Shown here piece after piece: positions 5,276 through 18,545 of a stretch of DNA of 64,000 nucleotides. A program made the translations under genes and the position numbers. The notes beneath the pieces were generated by a model that saw only the letters and a list, made by a program, of their open reading frames with translations, was not told where the DNA came from and searched no databases. The stretch is from Desulfatiglandales bacterium. Its GTDB lineage: Bacteria; Desulfobacterota; DSM-4660; Desulfatiglandales; Desulfatiglandaceae. The stretch spans positions 1,248,001 to 1,312,000 of the forward strand of contig OY762721.1 in the NCBI GenBank assembly GCA_963666345.1, read 5' to 3'. Each line of letters opens with the position of its first letter. Positions within the stretch are counted from its first letter, which is position 1.

Positions 5276-5292
5276 TGCAAATGATGTGCCAA
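5276..5292 (-). promoter_or_regulatory. Sigma-54 (-24/-12) promoter of the biotin carrier/carboxyltransferase operon
   Basis: Minus strand TTGGCACATCATTTGCA, GG-N10-GC spacing. Confidence 0.7.
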
Positions 5293-12402: not shown

Positions 12403-12417
12403 TGGCACAGACCTTGC
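12403..12417 (+). promoter_or_regulatory. Sigma-54 (-24/-12) promoter
   Basis: TGGCACAGACCTTGC, GG-N10-GC spacing. Confidence 0.75.
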
Positions 12418-13499: not shown

Positions 13500-15770
13500 T
13501 CATCCCCTTTCCGTATCCAGCAGACCGATACCTTTTTGACTGTCTCCATCCTGGTAAACATGCAGGAAACGGCCACCTGCATCCTCAGGAAAGTGAATTA
13601 CCATAACCACCCCCAGTAAGGAAGAAACCTCCGGGGCAAGGATTTTCATACGATTCGGCATGCCCAGGAGAAGATCCTCCCTGAAAACGGCCTCCTTCAG
13701 GTCGGGATAAATCGCAATCGGCACGATTTTGGCCTCAACAAGGTCGTTAAAGAAATGGGTCCCGAAAGAGGCCTCAGGAGTGCTGCCGTCCTCCTCGAAT
13801 GAGACCTCCCCCAGGAACAGGGTACGGTTGATATCTTCATACCCCACGCGAACACCTAAATTTATATCGTTGCTGCCCCATCTGCCGGGGCCGAAAAGGC
13901 CGTATCGCTTGTCTTCAAGCACACGGTTGAGCCGGCTCACGGCCCGGCCGACACTCAGCTTTTCCTCAAAGGTAGACAAACGGCTGTATGCCCTGGGGTC
14001 CACGTATACCAGGTATTCCACATTATGGATGGCGCTGTTTGAAACGACCCGTGTATTGGTAAAAACAACGTCCTCCGGGTCAATGTTTTCAGGGATCGTC
14101 ACGCGCCTGACATCTTCGGACATAGCAAGCGAGCGACACTGGAGCAGATAGAGTTTGTCCCGTTCCCATGCGAACTCCACATCAACAGGGTGCCCGCAGG
14201 CATGCTCCAGTTTCCGGAGGATATTTCTCATCAAAGAGACAAAGGGTGAATTTTTCAGGAAATTATCAAAGGTCACGCAGCCCCTTTCAACATCCACCTC
14301 CTGCCCCTTGAACATGGGCGGAGTGAGATATCCGTCTTTATTGACCGAGAGGGCATCAAATCGGTCTTCATCGTTCATCTCCTTCATTATCTGATGGAAT
14401 GGAACAGCCTCCACGGCCCCTGATTCAAGATTAAGCGCGTCCACAAGCTTCTGGGAATATTTAATGATCTGACGGGCTTCTATTTCAGGCCGAAGACCGG
14501 GATGACTGAGGGGTATCATACGGGGGTAATCAGAGCCGACCCGGTCCACCGCCCTGGTCCCCAGGCCGTAGACAAGACGCACAAGGCCATCTTCCATCCG
14601 TATTTTGGGAGTCCATCGGTAGGGATTCCTTGAATAGGCCACGCCTCCTGCAAAGGGAAGGAAATATTTGCCGAAGCACCGTCCAACCACCTTCTGAACC
14701 AGCACGCTCATCTTTTCGTCAAAATCCAGGAGGTTATGGTCCCTGCGATAGAGTATGGGCGCAGGTCCGTAGGTGCTCATATGGACCTGTTTGAGACCCC
14801 ATATGAACTCTTTAAGCCGGGTTTCCAGGTCACCCTGATTTCTTAAAAAGACCGAATCATATTTTCCGGAAAAGGCGGAACCGAATGTGTCCTCAAGCAG
14901 GCTGGAGGATCTTAAAATCAAAGGCTCCTGCCCCAGGCCGTCTAGAAAACCCCTGAAGGTGTCTACCATGTCGGGGGGGAAAGAGGCCTCCTTGAACAGC
15001 TCCGAGATATTTCTGTATTCCTCTTCAACGGCCTCCCTGTTCTTGTATTTCTGGCTGTGAAAATGGTACAGGCCGTTGTAGTCGATGAAATCGGAAAAAA
15101 TCCCTGAATTAAAATAGTAGGACTCGGGCATGACCACATATTTTTTGAGAAGGGGGTCCTGTGACTTGAGCCTCGGCAGGATGATCTTGTAGGCGAGCAG
15201 CATGCCGGCCGCCTTGCCGCCGATCTTTCCCGGCCTGCGCCTGTTCCAGAAGCTGTGATCGAGCATCTCGTCCACGTCACGCATGGTAATGTGGTGTTTG
15301 CCTGTCCCGATAAAGGAAAGATGACTCGATATAAAATGGCTGATCAGGGCCACACGGACCCCCTCCGCCTCTATCGGATCGATGAACAGATCCCCCTCCG
15401 GAACGACGCAAAGGGCCTTCAGGGCCTGCTGGATCTTCCTGCCTGTAACGCCTTCGGTATTAACGACCCTGTTGAGTTCTTGAAACAGCGCCTCTTTCCG
15501 TGCAAGATTTATGTGATTTTCGATCTCCTGATCGGAGAAATGTCCCGCGAAATAGAGATCGATGAGCGCCCCCCGGTATTCGTTCAGCCCCTCTTCGCTC
15601 ACCTTCACTCCCGCCTTCTCCATCAGCTCTCGTGCCTCATTTGAAACCGCCTCCTGCTCAACAATGCCCCGTTTGCTTAAAGCGGAAAGGAAGATGTCAC
15701 GCATCTTATCCACAAGTTGCGGATACTTCATCATTTTTTGATACATCCTATAGGCTGGAACAAGATCCAT
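13500..15770 (-). CDS. PEP/pyruvate-binding (PPDK_N, ATP-grasp) domain protein
   Basis: IGGKAAG, LRSSSLLED..FSGKYDS, GLGTRAVDR, VDVEFA..LLQCRSL, GPGRWGS and FGTHFF. Confidence 0.85.
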   Translation of the reverse strand: MDLVPAYRMYQKMMKYPQLVDKMRDIFLSALSKRGIVEQEAVSNEARELMEKAGVKVSEEGLNEYRGALIDLYFAGHFSDQEIENHINLARKEALFQELNRVVNTEGVTGRKIQQALKALCVVPEGDLFIDPIEAEGVRVALISHFISSHLSFIGTGKHHITMRDVDEMLDHSFWNRRRPGKIGGKAAGMLLAYKIILPRLKSQDPLLKKYVVMPESYYFNSGIFSDFIDYNGLYHFHSQKYKNREAVEEEYRNISELFKEASFPPDMVDTFRGFLDGLGQEPLILRSSSLLEDTFGSAFSGKYDSVFLRNQGDLETRLKEFIWGLKQVHMSTYGPAPILYRRDHNLLDFDEKMSVLVQKVVGRCFGKYFLPFAGGVAYSRNPYRWTPKIRMEDGLVRLVYGLGTRAVDRVGSDYPRMIPLSHPGLRPEIEARQIIKYSQKLVDALNLESGAVEAVPFHQIMKEMNDEDRFDALSVNKDGYLTPPMFKGQEVDVERGCVTFDNFLKNSPFVSLMRNILRKLEHACGHPVDVEFAWERDKLYLLQCRSLAMSEDVRRVTIPENIDPEDVVFTNTRVVSNSAIHNVEYLVYVDPRAYSRLSTFEEKLSVGRAVSRLNRVLEDKRYGLFGPGRWGSNDINLGVRVGYEDINRTLFLGEVSFEEDGSTPEASFGTHFFNDLVEAKIVPIAIYPDLKEAVFREDLLLGMPNRMKILAPEVSSLLGVVMVIHFPEDAGGRFLHVYQDGDSQKGIGLLDTERG

Positions 15771-16031
15771 ATCTACCTTCCTTTTCTTTCAGTCGCGATT
15801 TTGGCGCCGGGCCGTGGCATGACCTGGCCCTCCTGTATTGACTCTATGATCCGTGAGCAAAGCGGACAGGCTTTTTTCCCACCGGTTTCGGTCAAAAGCA
15901 TCAGATTGGATTGCAGGCTCCGTAAGAGTATTAAAGAAAGGATTGCTCGGATGGATCGGTCTTTTTCATGGAAACCAGGTAGCGCGGCGCCTCGCCGCGA
16001 CAGAAATAATAAGGAGACCGGGGTCTTCCGC

Positions 16032-16271
16032 ATAAAACATTCTAGCCGCAAAAAGCGGCTAAGGCAATCCCCAAAACCTTTTGATAAACAAGGAATTAGA
16101 GGATGCCGGCCGATTCAAAGTCTCGACTTGATTATGACCATCCTCTTTGGTGGGATAAAGATCTCCGGCCCGAATGTTTTATAAAAATGAACTCTCTGAA
16201 GTAAACTATACGGTATCAAGTCGGAATTCCATTGAAAGCCCTGAAACAGGGATTTCAATGGAATTTTTTTT
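16032..16271 (+). ncRNA. Candidate structured non-coding RNA or leader ending in an intrinsic terminator
   Basis: Nested stems of 11, 7 and 8 bp, a 9-bp crossing pairing, and a long hairpin with T-tract; see findings. Confidence 0.45.
16225..16271 (+). terminator. Intrinsic terminator-like hairpin with no upstream + strand gene
   Basis: AATTCCATTGAAA-G-CCCTG-AAA-CAGGG-A-TTTCAATGGAATT followed by TTTTTT. Confidence 0.7.
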
Positions 16272-16463
16272 GCCATCCCTGCTGTCGGCAGCAAAAATTT
16301 TAAGGATACGCCGGTACGGAATCTAATTGAAGAAATGGACCTGATCGCTGTTTTTCTATATAATTTTGTTTTAGTCATGAATATACTTTACCGTTAAAAG
16401 AGCTGAAGACATTTGCAGAGTCCTGCTTAGTGAAACATCAAGCCGATTTAAGGGGCCGTAATT

Positions 16464-18545
16464 ATGGGCAAAATCATAAAATGGGCAATCATCGCCTTTT
16501 CCGTAGTCTTAGTGGTGGCGTTAATCGCCGGTTATATAATATTGGCAGGTTACGATTTCAATTCACTCAAGCCCCGGATAAGCAAGGCAGTCAAAGACTC
16601 CACCGGCCGTAAGCTCGTAATAGGAGGCGACATCGACCTGGCAATCGGCATAAGCCCTTCACTGGTTATTGAAGACATACGGTTTCAAAATGCCGCCTGG
16701 GGCTCCAGACCCGAAATGGTGACAGTGAAGCGACTGGAAGTAAAAGTGAGTCTTATTCCCTTGCTCGGTGGTAACATCGCAATCGAACGTTTAATCCTTC
16801 TTGAACCTGACATGTTGATTGAAACCGATAAATCGGATGTCACCAACCTGAGCTTTGAAACCGGAAAACCGGATAAAAAAAAGGCACGGGAAAAATTAAC
16901 GGCGGCAGAGGACGGAATGACGATTCCCGCCCTGGGTTTCAAGGAACTTCTCATCCAAAACGGCATTCTCACACATTTTGATTTCCGTACCGGTGACTCC
17001 CATCAGGTTGTCCTCAGACGGCTGAGCCTGGATAAAGTAGGCTCGGACTCACTCCTTGCTCTTGATATGATTGGAACTTTTAACGGCAGGGACTTCACGG
17101 CAAGCGGTGATCTCGGACCCCTGAAGGCTCTCGCAGACGAGAAAAGACCCTGGTCCGTGGATCTCAAAGCTGAAGCCCTGGGTATCGATTTGGGTCTTAA
17201 AGGAACGATTAAGGACGTATTGTCCCAAAAGGGACTTGATATCGCCTTTTCAATCCAGGCGAACGATTTTGCCGAGCTGAACCGGGTTACAGGCCTGGAT
17301 ATACAACTTATTCCGCCATTTAAGGTCTCGGGCCGGGTATCCGACCCAGGACCCGAAGCGTACCATATCTCTGAGTTCAAGACTCTTCTGGGCGCCACGG
17401 GCTTGGCCGGGGATTTAAAGATCGACCTTTCCAAAAAACGCGCCAAGGTCAAAGGCTCCCTTTTTTCAGAAAAAATGGATCTGCGTCCGCTCATGGCCCG
17501 AATGAAGGACGCGCCGCTCCAGTCCAAAGAGGCAGTGAAACCTTCGGAAAAGGTGTTCTCCGCCACACCTCTGCCTTTGGAAGGATTATCCGCGCTAGAT
17601 GCGGAACTTTTGTTTAAGGCAGGTCGAATTCTGACACCGCAGTTGGCGGTAAGGGACCTGAACCTCAAAATGATCCTCAAAAATGGGAAATTGGCCATTA
17701 AACCGCTTACAGCCTTGATGGGCGGGGGCAATCTTGAAGCAATGGTCGATCTGGTGCCTGATGGCAAGGCAGCGACGATACACGCTACTTTGAAGATAAC
17801 CTCTCTTGACATAGAAAAGATGTTAGAAGAACTAAAGGCAGGCGACATGGCATCGGGCAAACTGGATATGGATGTGGATCTAAAAGGCAAAGGTGATTCC
17901 CTAGCCCGGCTCATGGGTTCACTCAACGGGAAATCAATACTTATGATGCATGAGGGCCTTATCCGCAACAGTTATCTCGACCTGCTGGGCGGGGACCTGA
18001 CGGGCAGGCTGATTCAGTTGCTCAACCCGGCGGCCAAGAATAAGGATTATACGGTGGTAAACTGTCTGGTAAACCGATTCGATATCCGCAACGGAGTGGC
18101 GGACGCGACGGTCCTTGTCTTTGATACCGAGCAGATGAGTGTGGTGGGTGAGGGAAAAATAGATTTGGGCAGGGAAACCATCGATCTCGGCATAAAGCCT
18201 CAACCCAAAAAGGGGCTGGGGAAATTCGGTTTCAGCCTGGGCGAACTGGCAAAACCTTTAAGGTTGGGTGGAACACTTGCAAAACCCTCTCTGAAACTGG
18301 ATACTGCTCAGGCCTTAACTGCCATAGGTAAGGCGGTAGGCGGAATCGCACTTTTCGGCGGTGTCGGTATCGCCGCAAGCCTTGTGGGAAAAAAGGGAGA
18401 AAAAAATCTTTGCGAAATCGCCATGGAGGCGGCCAGAACCGGAATAAAACCGGGGGCGGCCGTCGAAAAGAATCAACCCGGGCAGGTGGTTGAAGAAACC
18501 TTAAAGGGTATAGGCGGCACCTTGAAAGGGCTTTTTGAAAAATAG
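16464..18545 (+). CDS. AsmA family protein
   Basis: N-terminal TM, DFNSLKPRISKAVKDSTGRKLVIGGDI and C-terminal GEGKIDLGRETIDL..LGGTLAKP. Confidence 0.88.
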   Translation: MGKIIKWAIIAFSVVLVVALIAGYIILAGYDFNSLKPRISKAVKDSTGRKLVIGGDIDLAIGISPSLVIEDIRFQNAAWGSRPEMVTVKRLEVKVSLIPLLGGNIAIERLILLEPDMLIETDKSDVTNLSFETGKPDKKKAREKLTAAEDGMTIPALGFKELLIQNGILTHFDFRTGDSHQVVLRRLSLDKVGSDSLLALDMIGTFNGRDFTASGDLGPLKALADEKRPWSVDLKAEALGIDLGLKGTIKDVLSQKGLDIAFSIQANDFAELNRVTGLDIQLIPPFKVSGRVSDPGPEAYHISEFKTLLGATGLAGDLKIDLSKKRAKVKGSLFSEKMDLRPLMARMKDAPLQSKEAVKPSEKVFSATPLPLEGLSALDAELLFKAGRILTPQLAVRDLNLKMILKNGKLAIKPLTALMGGGNLEAMVDLVPDGKAATIHATLKITSLDIEKMLEELKAGDMASGKLDMDVDLKGKGDSLARLMGSLNGKSILMMHEGLIRNSYLDLLGGDLTGRLIQLLNPAAKNKDYTVVNCLVNRFDIRNGVADATVLVFDTEQMSVVGEGKIDLGRETIDLGIKPQPKKGLGKFGFSLGELAKPLRLGGTLAKPSLKLDTAQALTAIGKAVGGIALFGGVGIAASLVGKKGEKNLCEIAMEAARTGIKPGAAVEKNQPGQVVEETLKGIGGTLKGLFEK

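Follow-up and report, generated by a model that had tools for sequence, protein, structure and literature searches.

What is encoded in the gap between two divergently transcribed genes of a Desulfatiglandales bacterium, where a stretch rich in complementary segments runs into a hairpin followed by a tract of T residues? The stretch occupies positions 15906-16271 of a 64,000-nucleotide window, the term used here for the whole piece of DNA that was analysed, and lies within a 693-bp gap (15771-16463) that has a gene for a protein with a PPDK_N domain on its left and asmA on its right. The original prediction took it for an unannotated, highly structured RNA with a pseudoknot or switch pairing and an orphan terminator, serving either as a riboswitch or attenuator for asmA or as an independent noncoding RNA (ncRNA), with a sponge for the regulator CsrA as a weaker alternative. 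The reading that we favour, at about even confidence, is that 15906-16271 is a mosaic confined to this lineage, pieced together from relics of repeats and from young palindromes, and that its hairpin and T-run probably terminate stray plus-strand transcription. The locus would then show that a highly structured, pseudoknotted RNA can be mimicked by relics of repeats together with perfect palindromes.

All of the complementary segments named in the original prediction are found when the sequence is read directly. In the core of the stretch, an 11-bp closing stem (ATAAAACATTC at 16032-42 with GAATGTTTTAT at 16172-82) encloses a first hairpin (TAGCCGC at 16043-49 with GCGGCTA at 16055-61) and an inner pairing (AGAGGATG at 16098-105 with CATCCTCT at 16139-46). 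A loop segment, CGACTTGAT at 16124-32, is complementary to ATCAAGTCG at 16215-23 in the tail, and a hairpin upstream of the core pairs CGCGGCG (15983-89) with CGCCGCG (15993-99). The region 15935-16275 folds with -112.2 kcal/mol on the plus strand (z -4.38, 0/100 shuffles as stable) and with -110.5 kcal/mol on the reverse strand (z -4.19). This excess of stability is located in two modules only: the core (16028-16186), with z -4.86 on the plus strand, -4.45 on the minus strand and 0/200 shuffles as stable on each, and the hairpin region (16183-16275), with -27.6 kcal/mol, z -4.19 and 0/200 shuffles as stable. The 5' part at 15935-16031 is unremarkable (z -0.74, 49/200 shuffles as stable), as is the fold of 16272-16470 (z +0.56). 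Compared with 5000 native 159-nt windows drawn at random from the same genome and corrected for guanine-plus-cytosine (GC) content, the core has a z of -2.46 and 41/5000 windows are as stable (top 0.8%); its stability relative to the native genome is unusual, not extreme.

In the predicted ensemble, the closing stem and the first hairpin have probabilities of 0.87-1.0, and the range is 0.5-1.0 when the helix 16063-71/16099-107 is included. The ATCCC/GGGAT pairing and the AGAGGATG/CATCCTCT pairing both have probabilities of about 0, and forcing them costs 9.5 and 4.2 kcal/mol, respectively, relative to the optimum. The description of the region as highly structured therefore holds for the core and the hairpin, which lie beyond their shuffles, but not for the ordinary 5' part or for these two pairings. 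The main helices are perfect Watson-Crick inverted repeats and the two strands fold nearly equally well, so the fold carries no mark of an RNA strand. The region also matches no Rfam family, in line with the original prediction: a search of the whole window against Rfam gave 0 hits at gathering score, with only noise (E>1) below it in 15700-16500, and no tRNA or tmRNA is present in 15000-17000.

The genome that carries the window consists of one contig of 4.16 Mb (C1), in which the studied stretch is present in one copy and no second inverted pair is formed by the end words of its core. Searching 104 genomes of the same family with a covariance model of this core (54 pairs) gave no credible match (best E 0.055 per genome, a partial match), and BLAST with the core found no match in 208 other genomes of the class. 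BLAST with 15900-16300 against 60 relatives returned only 20-28-nt hits in 3/60 (E 0.003-0.008), which we take as chance. The exact core pattern occurs in 0 stretches of the genome-contig and viral-contig collections, and plasmid BLAST gave no match. A second pattern, taken from the tail, occurs in 5 stretches against about 4 expected by chance on our estimate; only one of the five belongs to a Desulfatiglandales metagenome-assembled genome. With its perfect 11-bp terminal inverted repeats the core has the look of a MITE (miniature inverted-repeat transposable element). Unlike a MITE, however, it is single copy in its genome and has no copies in relatives or plasmids or, searched as a pattern, in the viral and genome collections.

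The surroundings of the stretch are likewise confined to its lineage. A metagenome scan with AsmA returned only one contig (L036), from the same strain, which is 100% identical and has a single-nucleotide difference (T16068C) in the 693-bp gap. Six asmA orthologs (35-43% identity) have different upstream neighbours and no similar upstream DNA. The sole true ortholog of the left gene (65% identity, in genome G016) adjoins a gene for glutamate dehydrogenase, the counterpart of which is 2 Mb away in the window's genome; because the contexts differ, the gap is a lineage-specific junction.

The tail of the stretch descends from a dispersed repeat. BLAST with 16020-16280 over 209 genomes of the class matched one other genome (G152), in which 38/43 nt are identical to 16187-16228 and the copy begins at the stop codon of an ATP-binding cassette (ABC) ATPase gene. 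A remnant of a livG-type ABC ATPase gene was considered as the source and rejected (tblastn E 0.23 or worse). A search with the gap from G152 revealed a repeat of ~145 nt that begins with the matching piece and of which the tail of our stretch is a decayed solo 5' module (Table 1); the module hairpin is disrupted in this copy, and its profile score is 11.6 bits. Further upstream, GCGCGG--CGCCTCGCC at 15981-97 aligns to positions 81-97 of the repeat consensus, in the central hairpin, with 5/1000 shuffles scoring as high. The core does not align to the repeat consensus in either orientation. A possible origin of the core as an inverted dispersed-repeat copy, by which the 9-nt complementarity between its loop and the tail would be explained, was rejected as well: the reverse-complemented core gives p 0.99 against the consensus and p 0.13 against the tail. 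Dispersed copies, which the original prediction had named as an observation that would speak against a functional RNA, are thus a feature of the tail part but not of the single-copy core.

The ~145-nt repeat is present in 94/209 genomes of the class (family f1, 30/104; f3, 23/34; f6, 40/61); three genomes have 14, 23 and at least 46 matches, respectively. The genome of the window gives only two BLAST matches, and a profile finds about seven decayed copies there at E<0.01; copies in this genome lie at C1:1317111-1317236 and C1:3930717-3930861. Twelve copies (L081:1624-1767(-), L082:1187-1329(-) and L083-L092) are highly identical in alignment and have a 39-pair fold in common, in which six pairs show compensatory double changes. 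At each end of the repeat is an 8-bp hairpin with a CAAG-type loop, the two being similar, and a system of helices occupies the centre; many of its matches are solo 5' or solo 3' modules. The open reading frames (ORFs) upstream of the copies are co-oriented in 8/10 cases, and in 4/12 copies the first ATGA of the repeat holds the TGA stop codon of the upstream co-oriented ORF. We found no Rfam match to the repeat in six loci and no publication on it. It is apparently an undescribed family that is common in this bacterial order, and it should be masked or annotated ahead of ncRNA screens in these sulfate-reducer-like genomes. In one genome of the order (G164), a strong match to the pyrrolysine insertion element PYLIS_3 (L084:346-445 (-), 72.9 bits, E 1.7e-13) lies near a repeat copy.

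In its two covarying terminal hairpins, its many solo modules and its frequent position directly behind a co-oriented gene, the ~145-nt repeat resembles repetitive extragenic palindromic (REP) sequences and their bacterial interspersed mosaic elements (BIMEs), REP doublets forming hairpins (REPINs) and MITE-like repeats, as these are described in the accessible parts of the literature (PMC2817692, PMC2229807, PMC3184786); the tail, as a decayed solo module of a multi-copy repeat, shares in this likeness. In REP-RAYT systems the repeats flank a Y1 (RAYT) transposase gene; of the 12 Y1_Tnp loci that were fetched, out of 39 matches in four genomes, 0/12 carry the ~145-nt repeat within 1.5 kb. In the window's own genome, the Y1 transposase family (IS200/IS605 type) has 17 matches, among them C1:3695309-3695662, 3777867-3778220 and 4158235-4158588. 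Several of these have identical scores, which suggests that copies were recently active.

A diverged strain allowed us to ask how the stretch changes over a short time. A look-up of sequencing runs gave 10 DNA runs from 7 studies that contain the sequence and, among the 11 runs listed, no RNA run; contigs of four runs were compared, and one of them, X9, contains a diverged relative. In the left gene, X9 differs from the window at 8 of 366 nt in one stretch and at 2 of 139 nt in another; the differences number 20 in 487 nt (15548-16034), 18 in 235 nt (16036-16270), 11-12 in 114 nt (16241-16354) and, in asmA, 68 in 682 nt. Divergence at 16036-16270 is 7.7%, versus 1.4-3.6% in the left gene. Across 15000-17200 as a whole, divergence rises from the left gene, where it is about 2%, to asmA, where it is about 10%. 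On sequence grounds, this rise suggests that a recombination boundary lies within the intergenic region or close to it, or that the contigs derive from more than one strain.

The X9 differences do not respect the predicted structure. In tests that draw on this one strain and on the 15/18 differences in 16036-16270 that are listed, and that consequently have low power, X9 breaks 8 pairs of the plus-strand optimum, keeps 1 by a double change and alters 5 bases that are unpaired; when substitutions of these types are placed at random, 7.0 +/- 1.6 pairs are broken. On the minus strand 3 pairs are broken against 4.4 expected (p 0.22). Refolding of the X9 sequence costs the plus strand 6.5 kcal/mol, compared with 8.9 +/- 5.4 for random placements (p 0.2-0.34), and the corresponding change on the minus strand is -1.1 against +4.4 (p 0.13; range 0.07-0.18). 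The changes fall as at random, which means that no selection for the fold is detectable on either strand. A conserved structured RNA is not supported, given both the lack of homologs and these substitutions, which are neutral relative to the fold. At 16199 and 16209, X9 has the bases of the closest copy of the ~145-nt repeat (in G150), and this fits a relic that is decaying in the window.

The claim of an orphan terminator, by comparison, was borne out: the hairpin and T8 form a strong terminator-like site on the plus strand, and no plus-strand gene precedes them. The hairpin spans 16225-65 and T8 lies at 16264-71; on the minus strand no T-run follows the hairpin. A simple terminator scan omitted this hairpin, which has a G.A mismatch in its stem, and a second, custom scan found it, with a dG of -22.7 kcal/mol. 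The genome has 56 sites with dG <= -18 and T >= 7: 25 follow a co-oriented ORF within 200 nt, 5 follow one at a greater distance, 13 are orphaned and 13 are inside ORFs, so 43/56 are outside ORFs. These classes are approximate, since the crude gene caller took a spurious 155-aa frame as a gene and filed 16225-71 as lying behind a co-oriented ORF. In X9, T16227C and G16234C change the stem without listed changes in their partners and the T-run is 2 T shorter; the hairpin goes from -25.1 to -14.8 kcal/mol, a loss for which the three unlisted differences might compensate. As to its origin, an exact CGGAATT that closes the repeat homology is the base of the 5' arm, and the 3' arm is its reverse complement, which suggests that the hairpin may have arisen by inverted duplication.

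We propose that the stretch was put together as follows. The 5' part would be ordinary sequence, in which the GC hairpin may be a relic of the dispersed repeat. The core would be a unique 151-nt module made from perfect, probably young, palindromes, and the tail would be a decayed solo module of the ~145-nt REP/MITE-like repeat that runs into the 18-bp hairpin and T8. The hairpin would stop plus-strand transcripts leaving the divergent promoter region, ahead of the asmA promoter, the sole activity that we consider likely, and an RNA ending there would be a non-conserved by-product rather than a riboswitch or pseudoknotted regulator. We infer that such an RNA would have no selected function. 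The features on which this proposal draws, and those that bear on the alternatives below, are collected in Table 1.

Table 1. Features in and around the gap between the left gene and asmA (positions in the window; a dot marks features without an assigned strand)
Feature	Position	Strand	Basis or remark
Left flanking gene, 756-aa protein with PPDK_N (phosphoenolpyruvate-utilising, ATP-binding) domain	13500..15770	-	Pfam PF01326, E 6e-48
Weak promoter-like site TTGGAT-17-TATTAA of the original prediction	15906..15934	+	Hexamers 15906-11 and 15929-34; 7/12 consensus positions
GC hairpin CGCGGCG/CGCCGCG, possible relic of the repeat's central hairpin	15981..15999	.	Alignment to repeat consensus
Core: 11-bp closing stem, hairpin 16043-61, helix 16063-71/16099-107, further small hairpins	16032..16182	.	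Fold z, single copy, lineage-restricted
33-codon ORF behind AAGGA, rejected as a gene	16103..16204	+	No family match; X9 codon changes
CGACTTGAT, complementary to 16215-23	16124..16132	+	Pairing within chance
Decayed solo 5' module of the ~145-nt repeat; contains ATCAAGTCG at 16215-23	16185..16228	+	Consensus positions 1-44, 0/1000 shuffles as good
Intrinsic-terminator-like hairpin: 18 pairs, one G.A mismatch, AAA loop, then T8	16225..16271	+	Fold, scan
Promoter-like site TGGACC-17-TATAAT, 10/12, between terminator and asmA	16336..16364	+	Promoter scan
Right flanking gene asmA, 693-aa AsmA-family protein	16464..18545	+	Pfam PF05170, E 1.2e-41

Several observations weigh against the mosaic reading. 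The hairpin and T8 are among the strongest terminator-like sites in the genome, and such sites, being mostly outside ORFs and behind a co-oriented ORF more often than orphaned, look functional in this organism. In Salmonella, orphan terminators, some of them between divergent genes, were the main basis on which 28 genes for small RNAs (sRNAs) were predicted, and confirmation was obtained for 19 sRNAs, according to the part of that study available to us (PMC2330248), so predictions of this type have often been confirmed. The pair 16068:16103 is U-A in the window, C.A in L036, X6 and X10 and C-G in X9, a compensatory series for which we put the chance probability at ~0.05-0.1, a figure that is estimated rather than computed. 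If the 10% divergence of asmA, and not that of the left gene, is taken as the neutral yardstick, the element is more conserved than neutral. The neutrality test itself is based on one diverged strain and on the listed differences described above.

The precedent from Salmonella and the compensatory pair speak for a young, species-specific, trans-acting sRNA of ~240-330 nt, read from the plus strand, starting at a promoter upstream of the core that has escaped recognition and ending at 16225-16271, with the core as a scaffold whose loops pair with targets. We regard this as a tentative and on the whole rather unlikely explanation. The fold of the core and the strong terminator in a divergent gap are what such a gene would have, and a promoter-like site for asmA farther downstream would leave the unit independent. 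The likeness is to orphan-terminator sRNA candidates such as the island-encoded Isr sRNAs of Salmonella: a Rho-independent terminator lies between divergent genes and has no same-strand gene upstream, the arrangement listed first among orphan terminators in the accessible part of the same paper (PMC2330248). In contrast to those sRNAs, the present locus has no recognisable promoter and is unconserved even relative to the diverged strain, in which its terminator is degraded. Our promoter scan, which covered sigma-70-type sites with a threshold of 9/12 consensus positions, listed no plus-strand site at or above that threshold between 15771 and 16225; the promoter of the original prediction has both hexamers and the 17-nt spacer but, at 7/12, stays below it. 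The sRNA is further opposed by its absence beyond the lineage, by X9 substitutions that neither spare the fold nor leave the terminator intact, by a minus strand that folds about equally well, by the descent of part of the RNA from a repeat module, and by the genome itself, in which Hfq (PF17209) was not found. A variant that we consider unlikely is the birth of an sRNA gene, in which a decayed REP-like module gained a strong terminator through inverted duplication and a T-run and, together with the young palindromic module, came to yield a species-specific sRNA of ~240-330 nt. If the locus is transcribed, it would offer a small example of the birth of a terminator or an sRNA out of a repeat. 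A cis-acting leader for asmA, that is, a riboswitch or attenuator that starts upstream of the core and allows conditional readthrough of the terminator, is highly improbable. Like transcription-attenuating riboswitches and leaders, the locus has a structured candidate followed by a hairpin and U-run upstream of a co-oriented gene, here 193 nt ahead of the asmA start codon, and alternative pairings of 16098-105 lie at most 4.2 kcal/mol from the optimum. Unlike them, it lacks an antiterminator, a conserved aptamer and relatives, and between terminator and gene there is a promoter-like site. The best duplex between upstream RNA and the 5' arm of the terminator has -14.6 kcal/mol, where shuffled arms give -13.6 +/- 2.6 (p 0.34); since the upstream partner is no better than shuffles, no antiterminator is detectable. 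The complementarity 16124-32/16215-23, proposed as a pseudoknot or switch, is within chance (duplex -15.4 kcal/mol against -11.5 +/- 2.5, p 0.07; local alignment p 0.13), its tail partner lies inside the decayed repeat module, and it adjoins the terminator stem without invading it. The intervening site, TGGACC-17-TATAAT, matches the consensus better than the one proposed upstream and is likely, as judged from this match, the promoter of asmA. Nothing similar lies upstream of the six asmA orthologs, and an aptamer restricted to one species, with no Rfam counterpart and no homolog, would be unusual. The candidacy of the locus as a riboswitch or as a new class of structured RNA does not hold.

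The remaining alternatives concern the other strand, the coding capacity of the stretch and CsrA. That the minus strand is the relevant one, as promoter and long leader of the PPDK_N-domain gene, is improbable, although a promoter-like TTGCCT-17-TAGAAT (9/12) lies at 16067-16039, inside the core, the minus fold is as stable as the plus fold, and the X9 changes cost it nothing (difference in minimum free energy -1.1 to -2.0). The leader itself, 16032-15765, is not unusually structured (z -1.36, 17/200 shuffles as good), the random-placement tests are non-significant (p 0.07-0.27), the ortholog in G016 has no such leader and the T8 on the plus strand would be left unexplained. A 15-codon upstream ORF (MPRPGAKIATERKGR), at 15773-15834 on the minus strand, follows a strong AGGAGG and has its stop codon 2 nt ahead of the start of the PPDK_N-domain gene. 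It would suit such a leader, but its peptide is not kept in X9 (4 non-synonymous codons against 1 synonymous). A small protein gene followed by its own terminator, either the 33-aa ORF at 16103-16204 or a 121/155-aa frame, is a very remote prospect. The 33-aa ORF has AAGGA 8 nt ahead of its ATG and its stop codon 20 nt ahead of the hairpin. Against it, no ORF of the gap has a Pfam or NCBIfam match, and a search of 5.8 billion protein clusters, restricted to lengths of 66-212 residues, gave no relative of the 121-aa frame. X9 makes 8 non-synonymous changes in the 33-aa ORF, one of them in the start codon (ATG to GTG), against 1 synonymous, and its changes in the 155-aa frame are spread 7/5/6 over the three codon positions; in the left gene, third codon positions take 10/14 listed changes. 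In view of the missing family matches and the missing codon periodicity of the substitutions, we regard 15906-16271 as noncoding. A sponge RNA that sequesters CsrA has next to negligible probability. The candidate is like CsrB/RsmZ sponges, and like 6S RNA, in its 150-330 nt, several GGA motifs and long closing stem; it has 11 GGA and 7 A.GGA motifs in 337 nt, as many A.GGA as are found in only 1.1% of genome windows, and CsrA is encoded in the genome. However, at least 11 GGA occur in 11-12% of genome windows, and unlike those of CsrB/RsmZ the motifs here are not in hairpin loops (0), all 11 GGA being wholly or partly in predicted stems. The core covariance model gives no sign of conservation in the family genomes, and csrA is directly followed by fliW (C1:2377869-2378533), so that CsrA is paired with FliW. 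This arrangement is the protein-antagonised type, for which we know of no sponge RNAs.

6S RNA was rejected as an identity for the stretch. RF00013 has no match in the window or elsewhere in the genome, the fold is multibranched, not a rod that has a bubble at its centre, and the core is not conserved in the family, as a housekeeping RNA would be. RF00013 itself was found in 0/24 genomes of the same family and in 3/4 genomes of a sister family; the window's family may have a divergent 6S RNA.

The neighbours of the gap are ordinary chromosomal genes, with no mobile-element genes among them. A sigma-54 promoter at 16259-73 (TGGAAT-N5-TTGC) was also considered and rejected: it has 2 mismatches, the window contains 45 such matches versus 51.5 expected, and the 2-nt deletion in the T-run of X9 breaks its spacing. 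Elsewhere in the window, the sigma-54 pattern TGGCAC-N5-TTGC is matched perfectly at two places, 5277-5291 on the minus strand and 12403-12417 on the plus strand.

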